From a virus, in IMG/VR virus record IMGVR_UViG_3300011429_000011, positions 1 to 57,359 of that record: DNA of 57,359 nucleotides; one strand, written 5' to 3'. This document shows, piece after piece, positions 1,616-57,359 of the stretch (position 1 is the first letter of the stretch; each line of letters starts with the position of its first letter). Below the pieces are notes generated by a model. That model worked only from the letters and a program-made list of their open reading frames with translations, was not told the DNA's origin and did not search any database. A program made the position numbers and the translations under genes.

Positions 1616-1625
1616 GGAGTGCACA

Positions 1626-2054: not shown

Positions 2055-2098
2055 GCGTCGTCTGAGAGTAACGGGGCTACTCTAATAGGAGGATTAGC

Positions 2099-9284: not shown

Positions 9285-9292
9285 AGGTCATA

Positions 9293-9922
9293 ATGGCTTG
9301 GACGACACCAGATCCTGTTATCGCTGGGCAATTGATGACAGCATCGTTTTGGAACAATCAAGTTCAGTTGAACATGGTTGAACTCCGTGGCGGTGGCATT
9401 GCAATTGCCTCCCAAGCTGCGAATGATATGATCACTGGTGGTGGATCAACCGCGCTTGCCCGGACTGCAATCGGCGCAGCTCGTCGATTCTGGCGTGTGA
9501 ACAACGCTGGAAATGGTCTCGAATGGGCCAGTTGGGAATTGCCAAATGCGATCGGCACTGCTGGTTACTTTTTGCGTAGTGATGGCACAATTGCGACATT
9601 CCAGCCCGGTGGCCGTCTCAGCACTGCCGCTTCCGCATCGTCTCTAACGCCAGATAATAACGCATTTGAGATCTATGAATATACTGCACTTGCAGCAGGT
9701 CTAACAGTCAATAACATGGCGAATCCAGGTCCTGATGGCTATCGTTTCTTCTTCCGTATCAAAGATAACGGAACTGCACGGTCTTTATCCTGGGGGACTT
9801 CTTATCAACCCGGAGGCGTTGCATTACCGACAACTACAGTTATCAATAAAGTGTTGCATCTGGCTTTCATGTACAAAGCTGGCGTTGCGCACTATTTGAT
9901 TGGAGCTGCACAAGAGGCATAA
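9293..9922 (+). CDS. putative minor tail/fibre protein
   Basis: 209-aa ORF with RBS. It lies in the tail fibre region. No recognisable motif. Confidence 0.4.
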   Translation: MAWTTPDPVIAGQLMTASFWNNQVQLNMVELRGGGIAIASQAANDMITGGGSTALARTAIGAARRFWRVNNAGNGLEWASWELPNAIGTAGYFLRSDGTIATFQPGGRLSTAASASSLTPDNNAFEIYEYTALAAGLTVNNMANPGPDGYRFFFRIKDNGTARSLSWGTSYQPGGVALPTTTVINKVLHLAFMYKAGVAHYLIGAAQEA

Positions 9923-10791: not shown

Positions 10792-10800
10792 GGAGCTCAG

Positions 10801-12330
10801 ATGAGATATGTTTATTTTCTGACACCAAAAGAACTGGGAGTTATCGGACGTATGCGCCTACGTAGCGATAACGGTGAAATCATGGAAGCAGTTCACGATA
10901 CAGTTGCTGATCTTCCAGCGCTCGTCGTCACAATTCCAGACAGTGTCCCGAATGGAGTTGGTTGCACCCGTTATCTCGAAGCCGATGGTTATATTGCTCG
11001 AGAGGAACATGGAATCCTACGTCTCACGAGCATCAATCCAGTCACTAATTCAGTCGCATTCGAAAGCGATATGGGAACATTGGAAAAGGCGGGTAGCCGC
11101 CCTTTCGTACGTAGCGGCATCGTCCGTGCGGCGGGCCGCTCATTTCAAGATAACGAAGGATTTTTCTATCCGCTCGGTGAAACTCTGTTCTGGGCACCGA
11201 GGGGTTGGAAATTCGAGAATGACCGAATAAAGAAGAATATCGAATGGGCTGCAAGCTATCAGGTTGACGCCAATCGAATTCTCTGCGCGGTAGGCTGGCC
11301 GGGAAATGAAAATGATCCAACATGGCCGGACTATCAGCAAGTTCTCGCGGAGCTCATTGATTGGACGTATGACCAGTGTGGTATGCGGACTATTGCTACT
11401 ATCTGGGGTGGCGGTCATTGGGACCCTCTTCATACTACGGATCTTGTATGTAATGTTATCCGAGACCGTAAGCATAAGATACTCTATGCTGAAGCGGTTA
11501 ATGAGTCGTTTAATAACCTTCCGGATGTAGGCATAGTCCGGGAGATGTCAAGGCGACTCATGGCAACTGGCGTGCTCACAGTTTCGTCTTGCTTGAATCC
11601 TCCGACTATGGAGCAGTATAACGAACTTGCGCTTGGCTGCTCCAATATGACAACTGTCCATCTTGACCGCAGCTACGGAGATCTGGACTGGCGCTTCGTC
11701 CGTCAACCTTGGGATGTCAAGCAATTCCCCGGACCATGTTCGCAAGGCGAGCCAAAAGGTCCCGGTTCCAGTGTGTCCCCGTCCTCGAACCCACTCCAGC
11801 TGGCTCACGACCGACTTGTCGGGATCATATGTGGTGCAGGTTCCTATGTTATTCACAATGCAGCAGGCGTCTACGGTATCCCGAACAATAACGCTGGAGG
11901 TGGACACCGCACTGCGAATCTCTGGGAAATGCCTGGCATCGATGCAGTCATGCGTGTTGTCCGAAAAGCTGATTCAATTCTCCCGATTGGAGTAGAGGGC
12001 TGGCGTAAAGCGAATGATGGTTGGCGTCCGCCACTACAGCAACATCCACTACCCTCGCAAGAGTTCTGGGAAGGCGATTCCATTAATCCAAACGAACGTG
12101 GAGTCAACAAGAACTACTGTGCAATCGAAGGAGCGCATTTCGTCTGCACTCCAGCAGGCATCAAGAACATGGCGCATCTTCGTGCGACATGGCCTTGCAC
12201 GGTAAGGGTTTACGATACAGAACTCGCAGAATTAGTTATCGAAACAGATCTCGACTCCGGTGAAGACCTTTTGCTCCCCGGTGTGATGAATTCGATGCGC
12301 GCGTATACGGTCGTCGGAGACATCCACTAA
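10801..12330 (+). CDS. glycoside hydrolase-like (clan GH-A TIM-barrel) protein; tail depolymerase or endolysin candidate
   Basis: 509 aa, RBS AAGGAG. The motif …YAEAVNESFNN… resembles the NE(P) acid/base motif of GH5-type enzymes. It sits immediately upstream of the holin. Confidence 0.45.
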   Translation: MRYVYFLTPKELGVIGRMRLRSDNGEIMEAVHDTVADLPALVVTIPDSVPNGVGCTRYLEADGYIAREEHGILRLTSINPVTNSVAFESDMGTLEKAGSRPFVRSGIVRAAGRSFQDNEGFFYPLGETLFWAPRGWKFENDRIKKNIEWAASYQVDANRILCAVGWPGNENDPTWPDYQQVLAELIDWTYDQCGMRTIATIWGGGHWDPLHTTDLVCNVIRDRKHKILYAEAVNESFNNLPDVGIVREMSRRLMATGVLTVSSCLNPPTMEQYNELALGCSNMTTVHLDRSYGDLDWRFVRQPWDVKQFPGPCSQGEPKGPGSSVSPSSNPLQLAHDRLVGIICGAGSYVIHNAAGVYGIPNNNAGGGHRTANLWEMPGIDAVMRVVRKADSILPIGVEGWRKANDGWRPPLQQHPLPSQEFWEGDSINPNERGVNKNYCAIEGAHFVCTPAGIKNMAHLRATWPCTVRVYDTELAELVIETDLDSGEDLLLPGVMNSMRAYTVVGDIH

Positions 12331-12341
12331 GGAGGTGACTA

Positions 12342-12608
12342 TTGAGGACTTTCACCGGATACGTAGTATTCTTTGCCGCCCTAGGAATGATGTGTGGTCT
12401 CGCGGGTAACGAGATCACAAAGCTTCAATCCTGGAATGCGATTTATACTCCTGAATTTGTGGGGAAGATCCTCCTTGAGATTTCTACGGTTATCGCAACA
12501 TTTCTCGGCGGTAAATTGATTCCAACACAAAGCGATCGTCGTGAAGTTTGGAGTGAAGAAGAACGGAAACGTCGTCTCAAATACAGACATCAGGGAGGAT
12601 GGAAATGA
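12342..12608 (+). CDS. holin (class II-like, two TMDs)
   Basis: 88 aa starting at TTG, 5 nt after GGAGGT. Two hydrophobic helices (VVFFAALGMMCGLAG; ILLEISTVIATFLGG) are followed by a highly charged C-terminus (SDRREVWSEEERKRRLKYRHQ). Confidence 0.6.
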   Translation: MRTFTGYVVFFAALGMMCGLAGNEITKLQSWNAIYTPEFVGKILLEISTVIATFLGGKLIPTQSDRREVWSEEERKRRLKYRHQGGWK

Positions 12609-13024
12609 CGCAGTTGCTGTGCTTCAGTCGGAAACAGAATGCGATTCTGGGATTGATTTTCATCACGACCCTCGTGATGAGTTTCGGGATCGCAGCATGT
12701 TCGTCGAACGTGCCGCCGAATCTCTCGCCGCAAGCAAAGATCGCATATGTCAACACGCAGGTAATCAAGTCTCTCGACCTGCTGCGCGACATCACGATTT
12801 CGGCGAATGAGCAGACTCCACCGCTCGTATCTACGGAAGACACGAGGAAGGTTGTGCTCTATCATCAATCGGCCATCAAGACAATCATGGCGATGCCAGC
12901 CGGTTGGAAAACTACAGTTACGACGGGACTCGACGAAACCATCAAGAACCTGTCCGAGAATACGCAGAAACTCCTCTCGCCATATATCGCACTGGCGAAG
13001 ACGATTCTTGCGCAGATTCCGTAG
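12599..13024 (+). CDS. lipoprotein (lysis-associated?)
   Basis: Signal peptide with lipobox I-A-A-C (…LVMSFGIAAC|SS). It overlaps the holin stop by 10 nt. Confidence 0.55.
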   Translation: MEMTQLLCFSRKQNAILGLIFITTLVMSFGIAACSSNVPPNLSPQAKIAYVNTQVIKSLDLLRDITISANEQTPPLVSTEDTRKVVLYHQSAIKTIMAMPAGWKTTVTTGLDETIKNLSENTQKLLSPYIALAKTILAQIP

Positions 13025-15383: not shown

Positions 15384-15511
15384 GCGTTAAACCCTTTGTT
15401 TACAACAAGTTACAAGCTCGGCGTTCCACGTTGCCCTGTATTGGCGAAAAACGCTCCCCATGCTAGGGTATTAGGGGCAAGGTCAAAATGCCGCCTACGG
15501 CCTCCCAGGTG

Positions 15512-17320: not shown

Positions 17321-17601
17321 GATCTGCTCCTATAAGGTTCGGGGCCACGCAACCCATGGATTGCGTGACCCCTGCGCCGTGACGTTCGCCGACCGTCGGA
17401 TCAACCGACGGCTACCGGCAACTTTCACGGACGGTTACGAACGCCAGTGGCTCGCCGAGGAATTTTGGTTGGCATACTAGGGCAGTTCAGGGTCCCACTG
17501 AAGGGAATATCTACCGTTATTGCGTCGCCCCTCTTCCCAGTAGTGTCTGCGGTGATTATCTCACCGACTAGGGCTACCGACAACGAGCCACTGGCGAATT
17601 G

Positions 17602-27248: not shown

Positions 27249-27791
27249 TCAGTAATTCCTCAGCTCCCAGATGAGAGTATTCCGCCGTGGTATCTTTCCA
27301 AGATCGTATGGGTATGTTGCGAACTCAATCGTGGCGTCTGGGTAAAGATCAAAGAGACATTCAATATCTCCGAAACTGTTTTCGCAACAGAAGCTACGAA
27401 CAATGGTTCTAGTTGATAGTCCTCTGTAGGGTCGCATACAACCTGCTGCCATTGCAGGTCGCATACGAAGACCTGTTCGAATTCCGAGGTATCCTTCCCA
27501 GCCAAAGATTCCTTGACAAATTTCACCTTGTAATTGAACATCGGTATCTGGGGCGGCTTCATCCATGATGAATCGTCGACCAGCATGCGACCAATCGTTG
27601 AATTTTGCGAAGAGATCGCTTCGAGGCACAACTGAATGAAGTCCCCCTCCCGCAATCCCAATTTCCCGAAATCCATAGTATGGACTCTCTGCGTCCCAAG
27701 CGTCTTGGATTGTTCGCCAGTTCCTGAGCGTGTTGCCAAGACAACCTCGCTCCATGAGCTCGTAGAAGTGAGACTTAAACCGAAGTTCCAC
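27249..27791 (-). CDS. hypothetical protein
   Basis: 180 aa. I chose this over the overlapping alternative-frame ORF 27260..27868, which is Ser/Arg low-complexity. Confidence 0.4.
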   Translation of the reverse strand: MELRFKSHFYELMERGCLGNTLRNWRTIQDAWDAESPYYGFREIGIAGGGLHSVVPRSDLFAKFNDWSHAGRRFIMDEAAPDTDVQLQGEICQGIFGWEGYLGIRTGLRMRPAMAAGCMRPYRGLSTRTIVRSFCCENSFGDIECLFDLYPDATIEFATYPYDLGKIPRRNTLIWELRNY

Positions 27792-28863
27792 CGACGCTCT
27801 CCGGCTTCTTTGGCTCTTCTCGTTTTTCGCGACGACGCTGCAACCACTCTCGACAAGCGCGGTTCCAATCGTTATCTACGCTCCCGAGAGTTAGAACCCT
27901 GTCTGCATCCCCGTATCTTTTCATCCGATGATATTCGTGTGCTTCCAAACAGACCGAAACTTCATGAGGCCAAGATCCCTTTGGAAAAATATGATAACCG
28001 GTATGCAATAGATCGTTATCTGCTAATGTCAAAATCTGTGCGATGTGTATATCGATCTCTTCTGGATTTTCCATTGGTGTATGATGCACACGTTCTTTGA
28101 ATGCATCATAGTAGCTACCAATGTAATCGCCACGATCGATCAAATTACGGATCGGTTCACATTGCTTCAGCGTTTCGAGATAGGCGTGCCAGTTCACACT
28201 CACCTGATACATCCGTCCCATCGGACAGCCAATTTTCAGAGCCATGTATTCGAGAAGCATGGAAAAATGGACGGCATTCGCGCCGTAGGCTCCCCAGATG
28301 ATATCGTTAGACCGGCAGAAGATTATTAAATCCAGCCTACCGATTTGATCACGCTGAAATGTGGCGGTCGTATTGCACGGAACATCTTTGCCTGGATTAT
28401 CCAAGTCAGTCTCAGCATCCCACATTTGTAGAATGCAACGACGATCATTTGGATCTTTCCGTAAGCGATCAGCGATCGCTCTCAATTGATCATAAGGTGC
28501 CGTTGGATGTTGTAAATCAAACCAATTGCGCCAACGAGCTCCGTATGCACCATGGAATGTATGGCCATCGTCAGAATAGCTCGCCATGTTCTTGGCATAT
28601 TTGACGACGCCAGCAAGATCGTCACGACCAGCTAGCATCCACAGCGATTCGTAGAGATGGAAGAATGGGTTAGCGTCGCGCTGCGACCAGAATAGGACTC
28701 GCTGCCACGGTTTGTTGTAGATCGTTGTGACTGGAACTGGTGAGATGCGGACTGGGCCGTTACGACTATCGCGATTGTAGCCCTCGTAGTGCAGATAGCG
28801 GAGCGCGAATGGCAGAGCTTCGTGGACGTTCTGCACAAAGAGAGTTTTCATTTGAAAATCCAA
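27775..28863 (-). CDS. thymidylate synthase-family enzyme (ThyA or deoxypyrimidine-monophosphate hydroxymethylase) with ~100-aa C-terminal extension
   Basis: …NDRRCILQMWDAETDL… (cf. ThyA RRxIxSAWNPxDL). Catalytic Cys in …DVPCNTTATFQ…. RSNDIIWGAYGAN resembles the ThyA RSCDVFLGLPFN region. Confidence 0.65.
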   Translation of the reverse strand: MDFQMKTLFVQNVHEALPFALRYLHYEGYNRDSRNGPVRISPVPVTTIYNKPWQRVLFWSQRDANPFFHLYESLWMLAGRDDLAGVVKYAKNMASYSDDGHTFHGAYGARWRNWFDLQHPTAPYDQLRAIADRLRKDPNDRRCILQMWDAETDLDNPGKDVPCNTTATFQRDQIGRLDLIIFCRSNDIIWGAYGANAVHFSMLLEYMALKIGCPMGRMYQVSVNWHAYLETLKQCEPIRNLIDRGDYIGSYYDAFKERVHHTPMENPEEIDIHIAQILTLADNDLLHTGYHIFPKGSWPHEVSVCLEAHEYHRMKRYGDADRVLTLGSVDNDWNRACREWLQRRREKREEPKKPESVGGTSV

Positions 28864-28965
28864 TCAAGTAATCGCACCATTAGTGCTGAAATGAGCATAG
28901 CTCGAAGACAAGAGAAGCAGACACAAATGCCCGGATCTCCGCAGAGCTTACAGGTTGTAAACCAC

Positions 28966-29661
28966 TTAGTCCAAGATTTTGGCGCCACTGTTCACCAATC
29001 TCTCCGGAGTTCCCCAGTCCTGGAAATTTGTGATGACATGCGCATATTTCGGCCCAGGATAATCATTCATGGCCATCGACAGATACGGCTCTTGACTATG
29101 ACGGATTGCTCGGCTGATTGCTATGTCCAGCGCAATCTCGAGCTTCCGAACTGAATTGAAGATGCGAATTCCAACGATCCCCCATTGAGAAATCGGTTCT
29201 TTCTCGACGAAGCGCGTTGGGAATGGGATTTGGTCAACTCGAGAGGCATTGGGGTCGAATGTCTGTGTAACTGCTACGACTACTTCCGCAATTTGCGAAT
29301 GTGTGATCATCTTGAAAATATCGATTGGATCTAGGACCATGTCACAATCAGCGATTAGGACAGCATCGTTAGCTGGGAGACCAATAATCGCTTGTCGAAT
29401 CGTATCAGCTTGTCCGATGGTCTCTATGACTATAGTTTTCGTACCCTTGTAGTCTTCAGGTCTTTCGACACCGGCTGGCAGTGCCGTCAGGACATATGGG
29501 TCCTCTACGGGCAGAGTTCCTCGAACATGGGCCAGCATTGATAGCGTTAGTCCATTTCTGTCTTGGACTTTTAGTAATGGCTTAATAGTCGAATAGCCGA
29601 CATCGGCAAATCGCTGAGATTGTCCGGCTGCTGGAATTATAGCCCACATTCGTTTAGACAC
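28966..29661 (-). CDS. sugar-phosphate nucleotidyltransferase-like (MurU/GlmU/RmlA fold)
   Basis: N-terminal signature AIIPAAGQSQRF, the G-x-G-x-R nucleotidyltransferase motif. Confidence 0.55.
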   Translation of the reverse strand: MSKRMWAIIPAAGQSQRFADVGYSTIKPLLKVQDRNGLTLSMLAHVRGTLPVEDPYVLTALPAGVERPEDYKGTKTIVIETIGQADTIRQAIIGLPANDAVLIADCDMVLDPIDIFKMITHSQIAEVVVAVTQTFDPNASRVDQIPFPTRFVEKEPISQWGIVGIRIFNSVRKLEIALDIAISRAIRHSQEPYLSMAMNDYPGPKYAHVITNFQDWGTPERLVNSGAKILD

Positions 29662-30380
29662 TTAATCCTTACCTCCCGACACCATGAAACGACGGATTCA
29701 CGTCGTTTCGGTTTGGAGAACTCAAATTTCTCGATTCGAAGTGTTGTTGCTGCCAACCAGAAAGAGACCTTATGTCGGATACTAGGATTCAGCCAAAAAT
29801 CTGGAAATTTATAACGAATAATCGGCTCTCCGTATGCAGCAACTTCCCATCCAAAATAAGATTGCATGATTCGTGCCATATCGCTTTCCCGGCATTGTGG
29901 CACGTAGGCTCTAGGCGGACGTGGATCACAGAGGATAAGTTGGCCGTTACGGAGTAGTGTGTTTGAAGCGGTTGGATCACCATGTGTCATGCAGAAAGAA
30001 GTCGGCACTGCCCAGTCCGGAACTTCAAGACCGAGCTCCTTGTGATGATCCTTATAGCTTTTACCAGCAACATCGTAATCTTGCGATGGCCGAGACCAAA
30101 CACGCTTCTTTAGTAACTCTGTAATTTGGCACAGAAGATCGGGATGACGCGCCGCCTTCTCGAGCTTCTCCATCACGTAGCCATCCGTCGTTAGACAGAG
30201 GATACGTGGCGTGACATCTTTACCGAGTACCTCGCAGTAAGCGCCTTCCTGAAGGCACTCCGGCCCGGTTTTGAAAACTGCTGGCAGCAGAAGCGAACCG
30301 CTATTGCCTGTTACGAAGTCCATCTTCCATTGCCCGTTTCCACTGTACGACAACTTCCATTCGAGGGACTGAACCTGCAT
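29637..30380 (-). CDS. APH/choline-kinase-fold phosphotransferase (anomeric sugar kinase-like)
   Basis: Catalytic loop …MTHGDPTASNTLL…ILCDPRP (HGD-x4-N…D), typical of APH/AmgK/NahK-type kinases. The 3' end overlaps the nucleotidyltransferase-like gene. Confidence 0.5.
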   Translation of the reverse strand: MQVQSLEWKLSYSGNGQWKMDFVTGNSGSLLLPAVFKTGPECLQEGAYCEVLGKDVTPRILCLTTDGYVMEKLEKAARHPDLLCQITELLKKRVWSRPSQDYDVAGKSYKDHHKELGLEVPDWAVPTSFCMTHGDPTASNTLLRNGQLILCDPRPPRAYVPQCRESDMARIMQSYFGWEVAAYGEPIIRYKFPDFWLNPSIRHKVSFWLAATTLRIEKFEFSKPKRRESVVSWCREVRIKCLNECGL

Positions 30381-31077
30381 AGTCTTTCTGGGTCACTCGG
30401 ACATAGGCTGGGAAGAACGACGCGAGCTTCATGACATCAGTATTGTTCTTTTCGACAGTGCGTTCGTTCGTGCAGCCACCAGGATTCCCGAAGGCTTGGT
30501 CGACAACGAACGAAAAATTCACGCTGTTTGGAAATCCTTTTGTTAGGAGCTGAAGACAAACATCCATGTCTTCATGCGTGCCAATTCGCCCGAACTCTGC
30601 GTGTTTCCGTAGTGTAGGAACATGGTAGCCGAGGACATACATCATCCTCTTACCGAGTTGCCATCCACCTGCTTGCGCCTTCTCGCTGATTCCACCGCCG
30701 CGAGCTGAGAATCCAGCATGAGGAACTTCTTCAGAGAGGACGGCGTCTAGCTCGACGAATGCTCGGATAATATCTTCTCCCTCAGCTTTTCGGAAACGTG
30801 CGGGATCATCTTGGCGTCGAACCGCGAACCGAAGATCATCATCGAGCATCACCAATTTTTCTGACTGTGCGGTTTCGATTATCCAGTGACGTTTCGCCGC
30901 AATCCCCATTTCTGGGTCGGGCTGCTCGCTCACTTCACAGGCTGGGAAGTTATTCCGATGGAAGACCGCTTCTTTTGGAGGACAGACAATCGTAACCTGC
31001 TCGTGCAGAGCCTTCGGCAAGTTCTCCAGAGTAGTCTGTCGAGAGATGCGGCCTTTAGTCGGGATGATGATCCTCAT
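30301..31077 (-). CDS. putative GT-A-like glycosyltransferase (DxD), paralog 1
   Basis: MRIIIPTKGR…VMLDDDLRF. It shares the N-terminal MKIIVPSIGR…FVDDDIR architecture with 31232..31990. Confidence 0.4.
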   Translation of the reverse strand: MRIIIPTKGRISRQTTLENLPKALHEQVTIVCPPKEAVFHRNNFPACEVSEQPDPEMGIAAKRHWIIETAQSEKLVMLDDDLRFAVRRQDDPARFRKAEGEDIIRAFVELDAVLSEEVPHAGFSARGGGISEKAQAGGWQLGKRMMYVLGYHVPTLRKHAEFGRIGTHEDMDVCLQLLTKGFPNSVNFSFVVDQAFGNPGGCTNERTVEKNNTDVMKLASFFPAYVRVTQKDYAGSVPRMEVVVQWKRAMEDGLRNRQ

Positions 31078-31334
31078 TGTCCGTGTTTCAATAACCTGAG
31101 TTGTGCCTCAGCTTCCGCAATTCGCATATAGGTATTGGAATTCGCATTTGCAAATCCAATATAGAACGGGCGTTCTAGCGCGTAGTCGATATCTCGTCGC
31201 AATGCTTCGAGATGATTGCGTCGACCACGCTCTAGCTCGGCAATTCGAGCTTCTTTATCTTCGACCACGCAACCCTCAATCCGATACCGATGTTCTGGCT
31301 GTGAGTCGTATTCTTTGTTTCCCGAATCGAACAA
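31074..31334 (-). CDS. hypothetical protein
   Basis: 86-aa ORF; overlaps the paralog 2 gene. Confidence 0.3.
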   Translation of the reverse strand: MFDSGNKEYDSQPEHRYRIEGCVVEDKEARIAELERGRRNHLEALRRDIDYALERPFYIGFANANSNTYMRIAEAEAQLRLLKHGQ

Positions 31335-31990
31335 ACGTGCGGATACAGATTCACTAATTTCATCAGGCAGTCGATCGTGATCTGTTCATTGCGCCACGAG
31401 TTGCAGCCGCCAACCGATGGGCTGACATTGCTGTGCGTTGCGCAGTAAGTGACAATCGTCCCATTACCTCGTTCTATTGCATGGATAACGAGAGCAATGT
31501 CTTCATAGACTGGCAATACTTCAAGTGGACAGTCGTCGAAGTGGGTGGGATTGATCCCATAGACGGTTGCCACGAACTTGTTACGAATCGCGAAGAAATC
31601 GTGACCGATTGTTTCAACTTTGTCTACAGCGTAATTCGAGAAGAGCTGCGGTGCGAGCCCTGCCATCGAGAAGCCGCCGAGACCGACATGCTCCTCGATT
31701 TGCTCGATCATCTTCTCGACACTGTTAACAGCCTTGAGGCTTACACGAATGTCATCATCGACAAAGATGAAAGGCTCCCGAACGCTCTCCATGATTTCTT
31801 TGCGGACGAGGCCAGTGTGCTTACAGCAGCTATCTGAGAGATGCATGATAGAGCAACCAGGATATGCAGCCCGGTATGCTTCGACTTCATCACTATGCAC
31901 AGCAAATACAATCGGACGATTGGCTTCCGGGAGCCATTTCATCGAATTGCACTTACCGGCTCTACCAATTGATGGGACGATGATCTTCAT
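31232..31990 (-). CDS. putative GT-A-like glycosyltransferase (DxD), paralog 2
   Basis: MKIIVPSIGRAGK…IFVDDDIRV. Paralogous to 30301..31077. Confidence 0.4.
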   Translation of the reverse strand: MKIIVPSIGRAGKCNSMKWLPEANRPIVFAVHSDEVEAYRAAYPGCSIMHLSDSCCKHTGLVRKEIMESVREPFIFVDDDIRVSLKAVNSVEKMIEQIEEHVGLGGFSMAGLAPQLFSNYAVDKVETIGHDFFAIRNKFVATVYGINPTHFDDCPLEVLPVYEDIALVIHAIERGNGTIVTYCATHSNVSPSVGGCNSWRNEQITIDCLMKLVNLYPHVCSIRETKNTTHSQNIGIGLRVAWSKIKKLELPS

Positions 31991-32193
31991 AATTCAGTTT
32001 GTAATACTGCTTGTCTTATGTTATCCATATTCGGAATATACAAGCCTTTGACGCGACCAGTATAGCCAATATCATTAATTTGTTTGATGGCGTCTTTCTT
32101 TACAACTTCAGAGATTTCTAAAACCGATTTATCTCTGAATTCGTGAAGATCTACGTCTACTTCTATGAATAATCTAATCCGTAGCATATTTCT

Positions 32194-33084
32194 TTACACT
32201 TGAAATCGCCGTTTGAGCCGCGAGCCACCGTAGGCGCGCATGTATTTGTCGAATTCACAATTCCAGTGCTCAACTTCCCGCATCTCCCATTGTTTCCATT
32301 CAGCAGGCCAATAATTCGGATTCTTGCTATGTTCGAGGAGCTCCTGCATGTATTCCAGCATCTTGCGCTGGTGTCCTACTGAACAGGAGAAAACATCGGA
32401 ATCGTTGTAGACGACCCAACCCAGTCCTCGAGCGCATCCGGGGCCAGCGTTTGCCCACGTCATTATGTCTTGTGCTTGATCAAGGATCGGTGTCCAACGA
32501 AGATCACTGACAGCTTCGTACGCCATGAAGCCGCCCATGAAATGGAGCTCGCGAATACTTTCCCATGCAACTCGAAGAGATCGATGTTCGGGTGGCTCAA
32601 CCATCCAGTCTGCAAGCATCCGTGGTAGCTGTGGCCGTGCCTCGTCGATGCAGGCCAGAATCCCTTCTAGCTTGCTGACACCATCACCAGCTTTGATAAT
32701 GTAGGCGCCTGTTACCACAGGACTGACACCAGTCAGCCGCGAACGGGCTTCCTGTGTATCCCAATCGTAGATGAGCAGATCTTTGATTGCTTCGCCAGTT
32801 TCGATACGATTGAACCAGCGGAAAATGAGCGTAGACTCTAATAGCTTCAAAAGTTTATAATTGCCAGACGATGGAAATCGTTCGAGGATGCCTTTGCGGA
32901 TCGTTTCCCGGAACCACACTGTTGTCTTGTCATCTTCACGATGAACTTGACAAAAGCGCCAGTTTTGAAAATGTGTGTCCGTTGTCCAGGGCCACGGTTT
33001 GCCAGCTTCCCGATTCAACTTTATCTGATAGCGTTCGCGAGCGGTCGCAAAGAAATGGTCAAGTAAGACGAATTTAGCTGGCAT
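32194..33084 (-). CDS. hypothetical protein in modification cluster (near-leaderless, first gene after P4)
   Basis: 296 aa. The ATG lies 11 nt after the -10 of P4. Confidence 0.5.
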   Translation of the reverse strand: MPAKFVLLDHFFATARERYQIKLNREAGKPWPWTTDTHFQNWRFCQVHREDDKTTVWFRETIRKGILERFPSSGNYKLLKLLESTLIFRWFNRIETGEAIKDLLIYDWDTQEARSRLTGVSPVVTGAYIIKAGDGVSKLEGILACIDEARPQLPRMLADWMVEPPEHRSLRVAWESIRELHFMGGFMAYEAVSDLRWTPILDQAQDIMTWANAGPGCARGLGWVVYNDSDVFSCSVGHQRKMLEYMQELLEHSKNPNYWPAEWKQWEMREVEHWNCEFDKYMRAYGGSRLKRRFQV

Positions 33085-35301: not shown

Positions 35302-35524
35302 GGTGCCAGTGATGGCACTTAAAACACTCTAATCGAGGATTCTCTAGTTCATCAACGAGCTTCTGCAATATCTCTCTATCTGGCCGACGCACAAGCCAGC
35401 TTACTGATAAATCACGAAGACGCTCTATTTCTACTTCAGTTCGGAACTTGAGCAGAATCATTTGCTGCCGCTGCCTCTGCGGCTTCTCGTCGAAGTTTTG
35501 CGAGTTCTTCGGCGGCACACGCAC
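35267..35524 (-). CDS. hypothetical small protein
   Basis: 85-aa ORF; overlaps the polymerase 3' end. Confidence 0.3.
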   Translation of the reverse strand: MRVPPKNSQNFDEKPQRQRQQMILLKFRTEVEIERLRDLSVSWLVRRPDREILQKLVDELENPRLECFKCHHWHRAGDCTMEDFG

Positions 35525-49252: not shown

Positions 49253-49498
49253 GTGGAGCTGATGAGCTCTGATGCAAAAGTTGCGTCTTTCTACGACTGG
49301 CTGCTTGACCAGAAACCCCGCCACGATCTTGTAGGCCGATTAGCTACAGAAGCACAGCGCGATAAAACCTTTCCACGTAGAGCGAATCGTCTTCACCTTT
49401 TCCTGCACTATTACGATCTAGAACACAATAATCGTAGAGCAGTTAAACTCGCACATGCGGAATGGCGACAGCTTCGTCGTAGACAAGGGAGCACGTGA
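49253..49498 (+). CDS. hypothetical protein (possibly YozE-like)
   Basis: 81 aa. …ASFYDWLLDQKPRHDLVGRLATEAQRDKTFPR… resembles the YozE family pattern. Confidence 0.4.
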   Translation: MELMSSDAKVASFYDWLLDQKPRHDLVGRLATEAQRDKTFPRRANRLHLFLHYYDLEHNNRRAVKLAHAEWRQLRRRQGST

Positions 49499-51540
49499 GT
49501 GTAGTGGACTTTCCTTCACCACCGGATTGGCTGAAGAAATACTACGAACGTGGATTTCGGCTAATCTTCTACTCAGAGAAGCAGAAGGGGCCAACTGGTC
49601 AGGAGGCGCTTAATTGGACTGAACGGAGTGACAAGTTAAACGATTGGCGACCAAATCGCAATGTCGGTGTCTTTACAGGGCACGAAATACAGCCCGGTAA
49701 ATTCTTAGTTGACGTTGACTTCGATTGGTCAGATGGCTTGCCGCTAGCAAAGCGCATTTTGCCTGCGACTGGATTCGGCTATGGCCGTGCTAGTCGCACG
49801 ATGAGCCATGCGTTCTACACATCACCAGAGCCATTAATCAGTATTGCGTTTGATAACATCGATGGTAAGCCCCTAGTCGAACTTCGAGGAACAAAAGCGG
49901 ACGGCACGGTCGGGATACAGACCATGTTGCCGCCATCTATTCATCCCAGTGGCGAAACCGTTGAACTGCGGATGGATGAGGAAATTGCCCATGTCGAAGA
50001 TTTGCATCGACGCATGTGTCTCTATGCTACAGCCTGTCTTATCTTTTCTGTTCTCGGGCATCGTGGTTTGCTCCACGACACTCGGCTTGCTGTGGCTGGT
50101 TTTCTTCTTTCAAATGGCGTCACGGAAGAGGAAGCGATTGCAATTGGCGAAGCGATTGCAGCAGCAAGCGGAAACAATGTCGCAGACGTAAGCGTCACTG
50201 TTAAATCTACCGCACAACGAATCAAGGCAGGCGAGCATGTCTTCGGGAAGACTGCGCTCATTAAAGCTATTGGTGACGATGGGAAGAAGGTTATTGCTCG
50301 CATCAAGGAATGGCTCGGTGGTAGCGACTTCCTTGAGAACGAGAAGGGCCAGATCATCCCCACCTCTCAAGAAAATATTCGTCGAGCGTTAGAGAAGATG
50401 GACATAACGCTGTGTTTTGATAACTTCTCACAGAAAGCGATGATTGACTATCCAGGCAACGGGAATGGCAGCGCATATCGCGGGCCGCTCGTTGACGCAG
50501 TTGTTCGACACGTTTGGCTTGCCACCGATACTCGATTCCATTTCCGCCCTGCCAAAGACTTCTTCTTTGATGTAACCGAGAACACAGCACATGAGAACAA
50601 GGTGCATCCTGTTCTGGATTACCTAAAGAGTTTGAAATGGGACGAAGTTCCTCGTGTCGATGATTGGCTGATCAAGGCGGGCGGAGCCGCAGATACTGCA
50701 TATGTCAAGGCTGTATCCTCGATCATGCTCTTAGCGGCGGTCAAACGGGTCATGAGCCCCGGCTGCAAATACGACGAAATGGTCGTACTTGAGAGCGCGA
50801 CCCAGGGATTATTGAAGTCCACAGCCCTGCGAATGCTTTGTCCAAATGAAGCATGGTTTAGTGATGATCTTCCGCTAAACGTAGATGCTAAGCAGATCGT
50901 TGAACGAACACTTGGTAAGTGGATAATTGAAGCGTCAGATTTGTCCGGTATGCACGCTTCGCAGGTAGAGCATCTAAAAGGTATGCTCTCCCGACAGACT
51001 GACGGACCTGTGAGGCTCGCATATGGCAGGCTCCCGATCGAACAACCGCGGCAATTCATCATTGTCGGGACAACAAATTCTTACACATATCTCACAGACT
51101 CTACAGGCAATCGTAGATTTTGGCCAGTCAGAATCAAACAATTTGATATTAACTGGATTCGCGCGAATCGAGATCAAATTTGGGCCGAAGCAGCGCACAG
51201 GGAGTCAGCAGGTGAATCTATCCGTTTACATCCCTCCCTCTATGCACATGCCGCGCTCCAACAGGAAAGGCGTCGCGCGGAAGATCCGTGGGAGCAAAGG
51301 CTAGAACGTGCGTTCCCGCGCAACAAGAAACATCGTCTGGCTCCGGATGAAGTGTGGGGTGCTCTAGGTATATCAATTGATAAACGTGATCAAAGATCAA
51401 ATGATCGTGTATTGAAGATCATGCACTTACTCGGTTTCATACGGAAAGCAGTACGAACCGAGGATGGAATCGTAAAGGGCTTTGCCCGAGATATCGAAGA
51501 GGGGCAGTATGATCTGCCCGAGGATAAAGATCATGGATAA
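49495..51540 (+). CDS. bifunctional primase-polymerase (PrimPol N-domain) with C-terminal VirE/P4-primase-C-like domain
   Basis: N-terminus …NVGVFTGHEIQPGKFLVDVDFDW… is PrimPol-like. The C-terminal ~350 aa resemble the VirE/primase C-terminal domain (…FIIVGTTNSYTYLTDSTGNRRFWPV…). Confidence 0.75.
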   Translation: MSVVDFPSPPDWLKKYYERGFRLIFYSEKQKGPTGQEALNWTERSDKLNDWRPNRNVGVFTGHEIQPGKFLVDVDFDWSDGLPLAKRILPATGFGYGRASRTMSHAFYTSPEPLISIAFDNIDGKPLVELRGTKADGTVGIQTMLPPSIHPSGETVELRMDEEIAHVEDLHRRMCLYATACLIFSVLGHRGLLHDTRLAVAGFLLSNGVTEEEAIAIGEAIAAASGNNVADVSVTVKSTAQRIKAGEHVFGKTALIKAIGDDGKKVIARIKEWLGGSDFLENEKGQIIPTSQENIRRALEKMDITLCFDNFSQKAMIDYPGNGNGSAYRGPLVDAVVRHVWLATDTRFHFRPAKDFFFDVTENTAHENKVHPVLDYLKSLKWDEVPRVDDWLIKAGGAADTAYVKAVSSIMLLAAVKRVMSPGCKYDEMVVLESATQGLLKSTALRMLCPNEAWFSDDLPLNVDAKQIVERTLGKWIIEASDLSGMHASQVEHLKGMLSRQTDGPVRLAYGRLPIEQPRQFIIVGTTNSYTYLTDSTGNRRFWPVRIKQFDINWIRANRDQIWAEAAHRESAGESIRLHPSLYAHAALQQERRRAEDPWEQRLERAFPRNKKHRLAPDEVWGALGISIDKRDQRSNDRVLKIMHLLGFIRKAVRTEDGIVKGFARDIEEGQYDLPEDKDHG

Positions 51541-53515: not shown

Positions 53516-54061
53516 ATGGATAAACCTGAGTCGCGATTTCCGATCATCATTGAGCGCGGCGCGAAGCCTCACCCGATGACGATTAGCTGGCAGACCGCCG
53601 AGATGGCCTACTCAGTCTATGCGGCCCGCTACGGGAAAAATCAGAGCCTCGAGCGCATGATGCAGCGAGGTGGCTTCTACCCGAGCGAAATGGACGATTA
53701 CGTGCCTGATTGGCGGGAGCGAGAATCAGAACTCACCGCCTTACGGGAGGCGCAGGCCCGGCTAACGGAGGAGAACCAGAAGCGCACCGAACAACTGAAA
53801 GCGGCCTTGCTCGACGCCTGGGAAGCGAATACGTCATATGCCTCGCTGCTGAATCGATTCGCGCAGGCCGAAGCCGACGTCGCCCGCCTGACGCAGGAAC
53901 GGGACGGAGCGGAAGACGCCGCGAGAGTCTATCAAGAGCAAGTGTCAACCTCAGAACGTGTTCTGTACGCCGCCGAGGCCCGGCTCCAAGCCGTGGAGCA
54001 GGAGAACCGAGAACTGAAAGAGGCCTGCACCATCGCGCGACTGGCTCTGATCTCTAAGTGA
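53516..54061 (+). CDS. hypothetical coiled-coil protein (GC-rich gene)
   Basis: Start MDKPESRF, RBS AAGAGGA. The C-terminus is a heptad-rich coiled coil. Confidence 0.45.
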   Translation: MDKPESRFPIIIERGAKPHPMTISWQTAEMAYSVYAARYGKNQSLERMMQRGGFYPSEMDDYVPDWRERESELTALREAQARLTEENQKRTEQLKAALLDAWEANTSYASLLNRFAQAEADVARLTQERDGAEDAARVYQEQVSTSERVLYAAEARLQAVEQENRELKEACTIARLALISK

Positions 54062-54222
54062 CGGTCTATCTCGTCGTTGAGCGTGGCGACTGGCAACGAA
54101 AGATCGAACATCTGTATGAGGTGTATGCCGCATTCAGCAGTCGCGAAAAGGCACGAACGTTCATTGCTCTCAGCGATGGTAACGCAGATCTGGAAATTAT
54201 AGAGATAGTTCTGGATTGATAT
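54058..54222 (+). CDS. small protein (54 aa), not in the ORF track
   Basis: GTG start overlapping the upstream TGA. VTVYLVVERGDWQRKIEHLYEVYAAFSS…. Confidence 0.3.
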
Positions 54223-54433
54223 GGCACAGGCAGTGTTCATCTATGCGGACGGATTGCGCAAGGCGCGTGAAGTCAAAGATCCGCCTCCTTGGATCTTATC
54301 ACTATCCGTCCCATTACATGTGATTCCAACGATCAGCTTCGAGGGAGACATGGGCTCAGCTCAGTATGCTGAAACGCGATTCAAGTTGACTGGTAAGAAT
54401 AACGGATCGTATATCTACAGGGAGATCGTATGA
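54221..54433 (+). CDS. hypothetical small protein
   Basis: 70-aa ORF. Confidence 0.4.
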   Translation: MAQAVFIYADGLRKAREVKDPPPWILSLSVPLHVIPTISFEGDMGSAQYAETRFKLTGKNNGSYIYREIV

Positions 54434-54780
54434 GTGAACATCCGTTCTATCCAAATCCCTCTGCGCTCAATTCCTGCAACGTCTGTGGGTTAGAGAAGCG
54501 ATTTCATTACATCTCTGCAACTGGGATGACTCTTCGGCAAGGCGTCGTCCTAGCTTGGGATGTGTGCCGCCAAGAGAAGCCGAGTTGGAATCGACCGGTC
54601 ATGCTGTTCTGTAAAGATCCGGGCTACTACACGCGAATTGCCAAGAGAGGCGATGATTTGAATGGATCCGCGCTGATCGTGGTGCTCCCCATGCGACGCT
54701 ACGAGTTCGGCAACTTGGAATATCCCGAGGCGCGGGCCTTGATTCAAAAGCTCACATGTCGCGCGTTGCTTATTGACTAG
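54430..54780 (+). CDS. hypothetical protein
   Basis: 116-aa ORF; ATGA overlap. Confidence 0.45.
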   Translation: MSEHPFYPNPSALNSCNVCGLEKRFHYISATGMTLRQGVVLAWDVCRQEKPSWNRPVMLFCKDPGYYTRIAKRGDDLNGSALIVVLPMRRYEFGNLEYPEARALIQKLTCRALLID

Positions 54781-54811
54781 CTGATGCACATATTGCGAAT
54801 CGAGGTCGGCG

Positions 54812-55042
54812 ATGATGATCCACGATGTTACCGGCGAATTAGTCCAGGTCCGCGATTTGGTCGAGAGGCTTACCTATCGCCAAGATAAACGACGACGGAC
54901 TGGCCTGAAGCCTGACGAAACGTTGAACATTTCAATCTGCTACGGATTTCATGCACGTCAGGGTCGCAGTTTGAAGGCGTGCGATATCTGCGGTGCGAGC
55001 GTCGGATGGCTGGTTGTGCGTGGCGAGCTGCGGAAGCCGTGA
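54812..55042 (+). CDS. hypothetical protein
   Basis: 76-aa ORF. Confidence 0.4.
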   Translation: MMIHDVTGELVQVRDLVERLTYRQDKRRRTGLKPDETLNISICYGFHARQGRSLKACDICGASVGWLVVRGELRKP

Positions 55043-55102
55043 AGTTTTGAACATGTTGAAGTTCTTGAAATTCTGGAAATCTCGAAATTCTGGTAATTCG
55101 AG
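55041..55102. repeat. GAAATTCT/TTGAAGTTCT direct-repeat array A
   Basis: gaagttttgaacatgttgaagttcttgaaattctggaaatctcgaaattctggtaattcgag. Related to array B at 56981-57055. Confidence 0.5.
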
Positions 55103-55139
55103 GGATTTGGCCGCGGGAGGCGGGTTGGACCTGCAAATT

Positions 55140-55550
55140 TACGTCTTTTGTAAATTTGTAACTCCCAAAAGTTTGTAACCGGGTCCAAAGTTACAAACGG
55201 GTTACAGGCTAACTCGTTGCAAACAAAGAACTTAGGGCAAACACCAGTGCTCCTAACTCGTTGTAACTTTGTAACCTGCCCCCTATAACCTGCCGAGAAG
55301 CATGGTAGGGGGCTTACCCTAACTGTTACTGCTGTTGCTAAAGGTTTTCAATAGAGTTATAAAGGTTACAGGAGTTACATTGTTGCAAACAAAGCACTTG
55401 ACCCGGGTTACAGGCTGAGTTACACGAGTTACCTCTCGAAGTTACGCCGACGTTTGTCGTTCCAAAATCCCGTGCCGCAGTCGGCACTTTTCGCAGGTTA
55501 CAGAGGTTACACGAGTTACAGACGCATTTTCACTCGGAGTTACATCCATT
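55140..55550. repeat. GTTAC(A)-iteron region; putative origin of replication or other protein-binding array
   Basis: At least 17 copies of GTTAC(A) in both orientations, with higher-order repeats. GGTTACAG x4, CGAGTTAC x3, GGGTTACAGGCT x2, GTTGCAAACAAAG x2, CTAACTCGTTG x2. No ORF. Confidence 0.45.
55472..55491 (+). terminator. rho-independent terminator hairpin inside the repeat region
   Basis: GTGCCG-cagt-CGGCAC followed by TTTT. Confidence 0.4.
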
Positions 55551-55586
55551 CTTCTGATGTTAGCTAAACGTCAAACAAGGAGCGTT

Positions 55587-55793
55587 ATGGAGCCACTCAC
55601 ACGTGACCAAGTCCTCGAACTACTCGCGCAGGCCGCAGAAATCGCTGGACAACTGGAGTCCGCCGAGAAGAAACTGACTGGGACATCAACTGGAATCCTC
55701 GAGACCAGCGTGGTGCCGCCTGTGATCCGTGAGCGGATCCCCAATCAGCGGTGGCCGACGTGGGGCGACCTGCATCGCGCGCTGAACGGATGA
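55587..55793 (+). CDS. hypothetical protein (start MEPLTRD, RBS AAGGAG)
   Basis: Trimmed from the track ORF 55557..55793. Confidence 0.45.
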   Translation: MEPLTRDQVLELLAQAAEIAGQLESAEKKLTGTSTGILETSVVPPVIRERIPNQRWPTWGDLHRALNG

Positions 55794-56053
55794 TGATCAA
55801 CTTCACAGGCTATTTCTGACGCTGTAGTTATCGCTCCGACGCAAGACGCGTGCCAAAAATTCCTCTTCTGCAAAGTCCGTGCCATCTGACAGTCAAGTCC
55901 GACTGGTCAGCTAGATGTCGAGTTGACGTCCATCTGATGTCGGGCTCCGGCACTCATGGCACGGATCTTGCTACGCGCGTGCTCGTGCGCGGTAGTAAGG
56001 TGGAAGCATCCAGTAGACGTCAACATCCTCTGCCAGACGGACTAAAATAATGC

Positions 56054-56082
56054 TTGCGTCGAGTTTAAAACTGTGGTATCGT
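56054..56082 (+). promoter_or_regulatory. conserved phage promoter P9 (TTGCGT-17-TATCGT)
   Basis: TTGCGT cgagtttaaaactgtgg TATCGT. Confidence 0.55.
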
Positions 56083-56103
56083 GTGCTGGTAGGGAGGTAG
56101 GAA

Positions 56104-56364
56104 ATGGCTGAGCAACTCACACCCGAGCAGAAGCAGAAAGCTCTCGATGTCATCAGCGCCATCGCGGATTATATCCAGGCGATGTGCGAGCAGAGTCAGA
56201 AACGCGGGCTCCCCGGCTTGCCGTCCGGTGAGCTCTACGCGGTTCTGATGGCGACTGGGATGGGTTACATGGAGTATCAATCCTTCATTGGCACCCTGCA
56301 GAACATCGGCGCGATCCGCGTCAAGAACAACTGCATCATCTGGCAAGGACTGCCGAGGAGCTGA
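56104..56364 (+). CDS. hypothetical protein
   Basis: 86 aa, RBS GGGAGG. Confidence 0.5.
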   Translation: MAEQLTPEQKQKALDVISAIADYIQAMCEQSQKRGLPGLPSGELYAVLMATGMGYMEYQSFIGTLQNIGAIRVKNNCIIWQGLPRS

Positions 56365-56365
56365 C

Positions 56366-56542
56366 ATGGTGGACTCAAAAGGTCAACAGAAGCGCAAGTA
56401 TCTCGTGGTCTGGGAAGGATGGGTGGAGGGGACGAGCGCTGCGGATGCGTGCGCCACCGTCGAGGAGGCGATTGCCAAGACGCCTGAGTTTGTCGAGATG
56501 GATGACTGCGAAGTTGACGACCCGGAGGGAGAGGAGCTGTAG
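56366..56542 (+). CDS. hypothetical small acidic protein
   Basis: Start MVDSKGQQKR with RBS GAGGAG. Trimmed from the track ORF 56288..56542. Confidence 0.4.
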   Translation: MVDSKGQQKRKYLVVWEGWVEGTSAADACATVEEAIAKTPEFVEMDDCEVDDPEGEEL

Positions 56543-56640
56543 TCCGGCCATCTGGCCGGATCGCCCTATTCAGCTTGATGTCAGAATCTTTCTGCGCATT
56601 CGCCTCGCCGTGTGGTATGCTTGTAGTTGGAGGTAGGCAC

Positions 56641-56931
56641 ATGATCAGTGAAGTACGAACGCTCGTTGCGGACACGCGGCTCATCGACATCGAGGATACC
56701 GATGGCACGGCATTTTGCGACGCCAGCGATCTGATGCTTTCGCCGGGCGTATGGCCGGAGAAAATCGTGATCGTCAACAACGCCATGCCGAAGTCTCACT
56801 TCGCAATTGGCGCAGGCACGATTCTGACTCGCGGCGACCGCACCGAGCGCGCCGGGGAACTGGTCGGCGTGACCTACGTGAGCGAGGACCCTCGAACTGC
56901 ACTGCGGCGGTTGTTCGTCGCGAACGATTGA
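56641..56931 (+). CDS. hypothetical protein
   Basis: Start MISEVRTL with RBS GGAGGT. Trimmed from the track ORF 56575..56931. Confidence 0.45.
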   Translation: MISEVRTLVADTRLIDIEDTDGTAFCDASDLMLSPGVWPEKIVIVNNAMPKSHFAIGAGTILTRGDRTERAGELVGVTYVSEDPRTALRRLFVAND

Positions 56932-56937
56932 AGCTGA

Positions 56938-56968
56938 GGCCGGGGAGTCAATTCCCGGCCTTTCTTTT
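56938..56968 (+). terminator. rho-independent terminator
   Basis: GGCCGGG-gagtcaatt-CCCGGCC followed by TTTCTTTT. Confidence 0.55.
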
Positions 56969-56980
56969 GCCCTGACGAAT

Positions 56981-57055
56981 CAACTTGACATCTAGTTGAA
57001 GTATTGAACTTGCTGAAGTTCTGAAATTCTTGAAATTCCTGAGTCAACAAGATTC
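56981..57055. repeat. GAAATTCT/TTGAAGT direct-repeat array B (between terminator and promoter P10)
   Basis: caacttgacatctagttgaagtattgaacttgctgaagttctgaaattcttgaaattcctgagtcaacaag. Confidence 0.5.
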
Positions 57056-57067
57056 CCAAAATAACGC

Positions 57068-57096
57068 TTGCGTCGGTTTAAAACCTGTGGTATGAT
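57068..57096 (+). promoter_or_regulatory. conserved phage promoter P10 (TTGCGT-17-TATGAT)
   Basis: TTGCGT cggtttaaaacctgtgg TATGAT. Confidence 0.55.
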
Positions 57097-57168
57097 GGTT
57101 TTGTTGGTTGGCGCTGCAATCCCGCGGAGCCAGCCTAGTAACCGGATAGGCGGATGGTGAGGTGTGTG

Positions 57169-57359
57169 ATGGCAAAGGACAAGAATCGGGGCAGCAACAT
57201 GTCAGTGGTCGAGAAGCCTGCGGCCGAGCAGGCGCAGGTCGAGACCCCGGCCGCGGGGTCAGCGGCTGAGGCAACTCTGGCCGTCGGGCCGAACTACACG
57301 CTCGTGTATCGCCGGGATCACCCCCAGGATCGGTGCTCCTACGGCATCGCCGGCGTCAG
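57169..57359 (+). CDS. 5' fragment of a gene continuing beyond the window (MAKDKNRGSNMSVVEKPAAEQAQ…)
   Basis: ATG 6 nt after GGTGAGG. The frame is open to the window end. Confidence 0.45.
   Translation, partial: MAKDKNRGSNMSVVEKPAAEQAQVETPAAGSAAEATLAVGPNYTLVYRRDHPQDRCSYGIAGV

Follow-up and report, generated by a model that had tools for sequence, protein, structure and literature searches.

A GTTAC repeat array as the probable replication origin of an uncultivated tailed phage

Where does DNA replication begin in an uncultivated tailed phage, and which protein reads the start site? This question is raised by the IMG/VR record IMGVR_UViG_3300011429_000011, whose whole stretch of 57,359 nucleotides is called the window here. 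Between two of its small genes (54812-55042 and 55587-55793) lies an array of short GTTAC(A) units, or iterons, that the original prediction had taken for an iteron-type origin or a DNA-binding platform tied to the primase gene. Our analysis supports this view, and we estimate at roughly 75% the probability that the array is a replication origin of the iteron type known from staphylococcal pathogenicity islands (SaPIs) and P4, read by the phage's own primase-helicase. We favor this reading for the following reasons. First, in most related phages the homologous primase-helicase gene comes with an equivalent array. Second, the repeat word changes among these phages while the architecture stays. 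Third, the primase-helicase is homologous to SaPI Rep and has a predicted C-terminal winged helix. Finally, a residue of the wing covaries with the bases that flank the iteron core. The concept is already known from the staphylococcal islands and P4, to which the window array would add another instance.

Architecture of the repeat array

The gap had been described as free of open reading frames (ORFs), and we found no credible ORF in 55043-55586. The earlier count of at least 17 GTTAC(A) units in both orientations was also reproduced, since 55158-55543 holds 13 GTTAC and 4 GTAAC pentamers, 14 of the 17 being the full hexamer GTTACA/TGTAAC. In the whole window there are 82 of these pentamers, or 0.57 per 400 bp, and the next-richest 400-bp intervals hold three each. 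Among the longer repeats reported before, GGTTACAG is present four times and GGGTTACAGGCT, GTTGCAAACAAAG and CTAACTCGTTG twice each, as stated, while CGAGTTAC occurs twice and not three times. We derived a weight matrix from the 17 units of the array. Its consensus excludes T from the four positions that precede the core and has a purine at -1, followed by GTTAC and mostly A, which can be written compactly as (no T)(no T)R-G-T-T-A-C-A. The matrix detected 18 sites within 55040-55600, among them the degenerate units 55150 and 55285, and no second iteron cluster in the remaining 56.8 kb, which contains 44 isolated sites.

The units are arranged in blocks with a spacing of 8-9 bp (Table 1). Those on the left are mostly on the minus strand, with the inverted pair 55190/55201 amid them, and those on the right, from 55325 to 55539, are all on the plus strand. 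The pattern GTTAC-N4-GTTAC-N4-GTTAC is found exactly at 55497-55519 and with one mismatch at 55356-55378, and 0 of 100 shuffles matched it. The spacer between the opposed sets (55296-55355) reaches 65-73% AT in its right half, compared with 49% for the genome. Part of the left inner set (55254-55279) pairs with 55493-55518 in a 26-nt inverted repeat, I1, that is 81% complementary, and the array as single-stranded DNA is strongly self-complementary (-70.2 kcal/mol, z=-4.6) because the iteron sets are inverted. Since tRNA and Rfam scans of the array region gave no match, the array is unlikely to be a structured RNA gene.

Words related to the iteron had been proposed at three other places, and one of these survives in part. 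In the region around 15395-15420, the sequence at 15393-15418 (CTTTGTTTACAAcaaGTTACA) resembles an element inside the array and is the only such site among those claimed. At 17420-17600 the matrix scan found merely two stray units, which is the chance level. The two copies of CGGTAACTCC at the window start are present, yet no link to the array was found and they are likewise at chance level; this exact 10-mer lies at 1-10 and 88-97, 87 bp apart, and includes the reverse complement of GGAGTTAC.

Arrays in related loci

We collected loci that encode homologues of the primase-helicase (30 from viral contigs, 66 from metagenomes and 4 by protein look-up; given below as L numbers), searched each for its most enriched 5-mer cluster, and clustered the loci at 90% identity into 58 groups, about 45 of which had sufficient downstream sequence to be evaluated. 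For about 33 of these roughly 45 groups, the start of the top cluster falls between -100 and +800 bp relative to the helicase stop codon. By our own estimate, a random cluster would land there with a chance of about 7% in a locus of about 12 kb. Gut-metagenome homologues at 35-39% identity are among the linked cases (GCAAC x8). Arrays are located further downstream of the helicase gene in the window (3.6 kb), L001 (2.7 kb), L099 (2.1 kb) and L011 (7.7 kb), and just upstream of the primase operon in L005 and L022. On the sequences compared, the primase-helicase gene is the array's only consistent partner across the family.

The repeat word varies among the phages, the words found being GTTACA, ATTACA, CTTACA, ACTACA, GTTACC, GGTTAGA, ATTAG, GTTTACA, GTTTCGGAT, CTTATCG and GCAAC, and a TTAC-like core is common to most of them. 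The geometry is constant, with blocks in alternating orientation and opposed sets around an AT-richer spacer. The mode of the spacing within blocks is 9 bp (81 of 217), followed by 8 bp (39 of 217), and at least one triplet occurs in 28 of 37 arrays. As for conservation of repeat spacing in relatives, the word thus changes and the 9-bp block architecture is kept; the region is present and repeated there. Pyrimidine-rich "TACCCTA" repeats were considered as a separate element and rejected, as k-mer enrichment shows them to be iteron-like TTACCCT variants. Two different arrays follow the primase gene in L002, GTCAC x14 right behind it (9176-9471) and GTTTCGGAT x17 at 1.6 kb (10771-11137). Since the sister L038 carries GTTTCGGAT alone, the GTCAC array may be read by a different protein.

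Close relatives, whose primase is 64-68% identical to that of the window, are L031, L033, L034, L001, L099 and L036. Their words are GTTACA (L033, L034 and L099), ATTACA (L001), GGTTAGA (L031) and ATTAG (L036). The window and these relatives share one order of parts, set out in detail for L031, L033, L034, L001 and L099, namely minus units, spacer, plus triplet, more plus units and terminal triplet. The spacers of the relatives often end in TATAA, and their right part reaches 70-78% AT over 40 bp in L001, L033, L034 and L099. In L031, L033 and L034, as in the window, the terminal triplet stands just before the ribosome-binding site of the next gene. A similarity search of 54000-57359 against GenBank phages gave no match, so that no annotated relative was at hand.

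The primase-helicase as the proposed initiator

The protein encoded at 49495-51540 matches the Pfam families VapE-like_dom (E=7.8e-65) and Prim-Pol (PF09250, E=4.2e-8) as well as DNA helicase/primase families in PHROG, and the Pfam scan listed no match to a TOPRIM domain. Its residues 333-546 match PDB 7pds_A, the SaPI PriRep1 with double-stranded DNA, at E=1.3e-35 (phmmer). It has been reported that SaPI Reps are self-loading superfamily 3 (SF3) helicases whose C-terminal winged helix recognizes penta- or hexanucleotide iterons, and that the SaPI ori, which follows rep directly, consists of 6-12 iterons pointing in opposite directions on the two sides of an AT-rich centre (PMC9371898). When we built a structure model of residues 547-681 with 44 database homologues, the model (mean predicted local distance difference test, pLDDT, of 87) showed a helical linker, a strand, a helix, a short helix, the recognition helix QRSNDRVLKIMHL and a two-stranded wing. 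We therefore predict that the C-terminus of the window protein is a winged helix. A profile search with this domain alone against PDB sequences returned no meaningful match.

Acidic C-termini resembling the tip of single-stranded DNA-binding protein (SSB), such as DDDIPF, DDIPF, DDDIKF, NAPF and DTPF, are found in many homologues, among them those from L009, L021, L018, L016, L015 and L005, which suggests that these tails mimic the protein interactions of the SSB tail. The window protein lacks such an SSB-like tail and ends in EDKDHG.

Covariation of a wing residue with the iteron flanks

We set an alignment of winged helices from about 40 initiators beside the consensus of their iterons. Proteins with T, S or A at position 4 of wing strand 1 (IRKAVR in the window; KRTTVR and RRVTVR in others) go with R-G-TTAC-A units, and A is the commonest base after TTAC in 13 of 14 cases. 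Proteins with R or K at this position (KRTRVR, TRTRIR and RRTKVR) go with T-G-TTAC-[C/T/G] units, and the commonest base after TTAC is other than A in 9 of 11 cases. In a tree of the helicase domain, the states switch back and forth inside a single clade (L070/L007, L048/L017 and L051/L018) and differ between the sisters L016 and L009, and the association is therefore not one inherited event; it holds over four sister-pair contrasts. We regard this covariation as supportive only of the proposed pairing.

A more far-reaching and doubtful proposal is that the roughly 40 pairs of array and initiator define a readable winged-helix code, in which wing residue 4 would be matched with bases -2 and +1 of TTAC and the N-terminus of the recognition helix would contribute, and that each triplet block at 9 bp would accommodate three neighbouring winged helices from a single hexamer, that is, a half ring. 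Such a half-ring geometry is not known to have been described for SaPI origins. If the proposal were true, origin specificity, and hence cross-replication or incompatibility of co-infecting phages and satellites, would be predictable from sequence.

Proposed mechanism

Every step of the mechanism, from binding and melting to priming and the start of replication at this site, is drawn from homology and comparison. The C-terminal winged helix of the PrimPol-SF3 helicase would recognize the R-GTTAC-A units, roughly 20 in number. With minus sets to the left and plus sets to the right of the spacer, two helicase rings could assemble face to face, which is conceivable because the 9-bp-spaced blocks oppose each other around an AT-richer spacer. 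The rings would then melt the spacer without a separate loader, the fused PrimPol domain would lay the first primers, and the family-A DNA polymerase (35436-37403) would extend them.

For an uncultivated phage from soil/groundwater, with a genome of about 73 kb and a DNA-hypermodification cluster, this analysis locates a probable replication origin and its probable initiator. The comparison indicates further that a module of a self-loading SF3 helicase and a short-iteron origin is widespread in environmental and gut tailed phages, with a highly conserved geometry and a fast-evolving repeat word. The matched pairs of initiator and iteron are a resource for studying how winged-helix specificity changes, and an aid for annotating the origins of metagenomic phages.

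Comparison with known systems

The system resembles SaPIs and other phage-inducible chromosomal islands (PICIs) in its homologous SF3 helicase core, its predicted C-terminal winged helix, its iterons of 5-6 nt, and its opposed iteron sets around an AT-richer centre (minus 55254-55285, plus from 55325/55356). Primase and helicase are fused as in SaPI5. The SaPI ori adjoins its rep gene, and the arrays compared here lie downstream of the initiator gene, at a distance in the window and directly after it in most relatives examined. A further mark of the SaPI module is that Rep specifically binds and melts its own ori without needing ATP. However, the window array is not a SaPI, because the window belongs not to a satellite island but to a full phage, which has tail genes and a DNA polymerase of its own. 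It also differs in its larger number of units, about 20 in 5-6 blocks (often 9-bp triplets) along 400 bp, compared with 6-12 iterons in SaPIs, in lying about 3.6 kb of genes without known homologues (ORFans) away from the primase-helicase gene, in its only modestly AT-rich spacer, and in containing a second conserved motif and a -35-like element.

In P4, the winged helix of the alpha protein recognizes short repeated words, the type I iterons TGTTCACC present in ori and crr. In the alpha protein, primase and SF3 helicase are joined in one polypeptide with a C-terminal winged helix that binds the origin (PMC4234260). The window phage shares this combination, its winged helix being predicted here, and the use of short repeated words. 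Unlike the TOPRIM/DnaG-like primase of P4, the window primase is a PrimPol of the archaeo-eukaryotic type. P4 needs two separated clusters, ori and crr, whereas one cluster was found in the 57-kb window, about 15 kb of the genome lying outside it.

The replicases of pRN1 (ORF904) and Bordetella phage BPP-1/BIP-1 also consist of PrimPol, SF3 helicase and winged helix, their origin is located 3' of the gene, and the pRN1/BIP-1 origin is described as a stem-loop of about 100 nt without iterons (PMC4234260). The window system agrees with them in the order of domains, in a proposed origin downstream of its own gene and in the self-complementarity of the single strand, but a multi-copy short iteron dominates its array. 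A further likeness, as an analogy only, is seen in eukaryotic viruses. Polyomavirus large T antigen and papillomavirus E1 are SF3 initiators that act as double hexamers on head-to-head words (GAGGC and the E1 sites, respectively) beside an AT-rich tract. The SF3 helicase initiator, the penta- or hexanucleotide words and the AT-rich tract are comparable, while the fold and position of the origin-binding domain, the far smaller number of sites and the eukaryotic host are different, and no homology of the DNA-binding domains is claimed.

Points against the origin and alternative explanations

Here, we need to consider several observations that weigh against an origin read by the primase-helicase. 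First, the spacer is only modestly AT-rich, with 53% overall and at most 65% over 40 bp, where the genome has 49%. Second, the array does not adjoin the helicase gene but starts 3,618 bp downstream of it, in the same strand block. Third, L032 and L100, two long contigs of relatives, stop before any array. Fourth, the winged helix differs little between phages whose iterons differ, so that its specificity determinants are identified only in part; the covariation has exceptions (L056, L014 and L019, and L001 and L047 at position -2), and the sequences that covary are phylogenetically related, a kinship that the test ignores. Fifth, the cumulative GC skew turns at about 48-49 kb and not at 55.3 kb; since its minimum coincides with the flip in gene orientation, the skew is confounded with transcription and tells nothing about where the origin lies. 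Finally, a conserved -35-like TTGAC and a second motif inside the array point to what is probably some transcriptional role as well.

As for the distance from the helicase gene, it looks like an insertion of ORFan genes in the window lineage, because the primase gene stands directly before the homologue of the gene at 54812-55042 in L034 and L054. The window ORFs at 51.5-55.1 kb had no homologues in the 30 viral loci. In L031, a gene of the MUG113/T5orf172 type (GIY-YIG-like homing endonuclease family; 12100-12576) is inserted between primase and array. Taken with the 3.2 kb of ORFans in the window, this makes the interval from primase to origin look like a hot spot for insertions.

The second motif, TTGCAAACAAAG, occurs twice in the array (Table 1) and has a further copy, with one mismatch, in an intergenic region on the minus strand (15394-15405). 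It is kept in L001, L034, L036 and L099 regardless of the iteron word, and for this reason it is probably read by a different, conserved factor, or else is a promoter element. The juxtaposition CTTTGTTT[GC]CAAC-aa-CTTGAC is common to L001, L034 and L099. Usually TTGCAAACAAAG is 2 bp from CTTGAC, and the orientation in the window is flipped relative to the relatives.

These elements are the main ground for the best of the alternatives, which we nevertheless consider unlikely, namely that the array is an operator or promoter platform for another regulator, for which the 76-aa CxxC protein encoded just upstream would be the candidate, that it controls a rightward operon from 55587, and that its association with the primase gene is merely positional. 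A -35-like TTGAC(C) follows the conserved TTGCAAACAAAG inside the array in the window, L001, L034 and L099, and the site at 15393-15418 shows a similar element in another intergenic region. However, there is no convincing -10 element after the TTGAC of the array, and a scan of 54700-56200 for sigma-70 promoters and terminators called nothing within the array. The gene that comes right after the array has a strong ribosome-binding site, and homologues of the upstream gene, detected by tblastn in L033, L034 and L054 downstream of the primase gene, adjoin the array in L033 and L034, following the primase at once and preceding the array in L034 (the sequence of L054, with the same start, stops before any array). 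Nevertheless, the flanking genes are missing from most array-bearing loci, and no DNA-binding family was detected in either flanking protein. Furthermore, about 20 sites over 400 bp, opposed around an AT-richer spacer, are origin-like, and the wing-residue covariation concerns the helicase protein.

It is less probable still that the array is a packaging site, pac or adjacent to cos, bound by the small terminase in the manner of the P1 pac hexamer clusters and located between the replication genes and the missing head module. The array does lie within the last 2.2 kb of the contig, and in four relatives the contigs, of 72-78 kb, all stop 0.75-9.9 kb past the primase gene. Two of the related sequences, L031 (end 15369) and L099 (end 21907), stop just after the homologue of the truncated last gene of the window (57169 to end), L099 in poly-G, and the physical right end of the genome is on this basis probably about 0.5 kb beyond the end of the window. 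However, the arrays of L031 and L099 are 2.3 kb and 7.4 kb, respectively, from these apparent ends, with several genes between, which disfavors a pac or cos site at the physical ends. In distant phages the array abuts the helicase stop codon wherever the gene sits in the contig. Neither terminase nor head genes were found in the window, and no terminase gene was called beside the arrays examined. The least credible alternative is a partition (centromere-like) site of a plasmid-prophage with a binder of the ParB or ParR type, for although type Ib/II centromeres typically consist of 7-11-bp repeats arrayed in both orientations and the short repeats here are in both orientations, library scans of about 50 window proteins found no ParA, ParB, ParR, integrase or repressor family, and the gene set, with its own PolA, ligase, helicases and hypermodification cluster, looks virulent-phage-like.

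Genomic context and flanking elements

The origin read by the primase-helicase would be placed in an incomplete genome, since the contigs of relatives span 72-78 kb; the window is part of a siphovirus of about 73 kb whose head module is missing. Tail genes are on the plus strand at 614-13024, with the tape measure gene at 2828-6643. A minus-strand block at 13-49 kb encodes a ligase, a UvrD-like helicase, an SNF2 helicase, the family-A DNA polymerase and hypermodification genes. The plus-strand block starts at 49.2 kb and has the PrimPol/VapE-like SF3 helicase gene near its opening. The features of the array and of the genes concerned are collected in Table 1.

Table 1. Coordinates of the array parts, the proposed initiator and the flanking genes in the window
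Feature	Position	Strand	Remarks
Proposed initiator, 681 aa	49495-51540	+	N-terminal PrimPol, central VapE/D5-like SF3 helicase, C-terminal winged helix (predicted)
Predicted winged-helix domain, aa 613-665	51331-51489	+	Recognition helix QRSNDRVLKIMHL; wing strands IRKAVRT and GIVKGFAR
Small gene, 76 aa, directly upstream of array	54812-55042	+	CxxC motif; no family match
AT-rich run, left array border	55056-55097	+	70% AT; three TTGAAATTCTGGAAAT-like (TTGAAATTCTGG-like) repeats
Outer-left iteron block	55147-55207		Units 55150(-), 55158(-), 55175(-), 55190(+), 55201(+); matrix hits; inverted pairs I8, I11, I12
Second motif TTGCAAACAAAG, copy 1	55217-55228	+	Preceded by degenerate iteron CTAAC at 55210
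Left inner iteron set	55253-55295	-	Units 55254 (CTAAC, degenerate), 55263, 55271, 55285 (ATAAC, degenerate); 8-9 bp spacing
Spacer between opposed iteron sets	55296-55355		Proposed melting region; contains plus unit 55325
Central plus triplet	55356-55379	+	GTTAT 55356 (degenerate), GTTAC 55365 and 55374; 9-bp spacing
Second motif TTGCAAACAAAG, copy 2, and -35-like element	55383-55403	+	Motif 55383-55394; TTGACC 55398-55403
Plus iteron block	55405-55446	+	Units 55407, 55419, 55428, 55441
Hairpin, weak terminator at best	55472-55491	+	GTGCCG-cagt-CGGCAC (55472-55487), then TTTT
Right-hand plus triplet and lone unit	55493-55545	+	Units 55497, 55506, 55515 (9-bp spacing); lone unit 55539
Small gene, 68 aa, directly downstream of array	55587-55793	+	AAGGAG ribosome-binding site 55575-55580; no family match

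The hairpin in the right part of the array had been described as terminator-like. Its stem and the TTTT exist, but it is weak (-9.7 kcal/mol, z=-0.89 compared with shuffles) and was not called by the terminator scan, and we rejected it as a conserved terminator because its sequence is not kept in the relatives. A homologue of the downstream gene (55587-55793) lies directly downstream of the L031 array (E=8e-8). AT-rich border repeats also flank the L031 array, and a GGCGGGAGGCG-like box is found upstream of the array in L001, L020 and L034. AT-rich tandem TTGAAATTCTG(G/A)AAT-like repeats occur at 55056-55097 and 57013-57036 in the window and at 12575-12625 and 14610-14690 in L031. Those at 57013-57036 are upstream of a good extended -10 promoter for the last gene (TTGCGT at 57069-57074, a 17-nt spacer, and TGgTATGAT ending at 57097). 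The G-rich box GGCGGGAGGCGGGTTGGA stands just upstream of the array in the window (55113-55130) and is also present in L001 (about 9848), L020 (about 12497) and L034 (about 3756), outside any conserved ORF.

Among the small ORFs at 49.2-56.9 kb, Pfam and PHROG scans detected no DNA-binding family with the sole exception of a small YozE_SAM-like protein (49253-49498, E=5.6e-10). Its gene lies just upstream of the primase-helicase gene and overlaps its start, and it keeps that position in L001, L003, L005, L021 and L032. The minus-strand DNA-hypermodification cluster (27775-33084) consists of a thymidylate-synthase-like enzyme (27775-28863), a MobA-like nucleotidyltransferase (28966-29661), TET-associated glycosyltransferases (30301-31077 and 31232-31990) and a 5-hydroxymethyldeoxyuridine (5-hmdU) DNA kinase (32194-33084), and the T-rich iterons are probably modified in virion DNA. 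Finally, an 852-aa protein encoded on the minus strand at 41642-44200 matches the Major Vault Protein shoulder (E=1.9e-26), vault repeat and SPFH/Band-7 domains, and such a vault-like protein is unusual within a block of phage replication genes.

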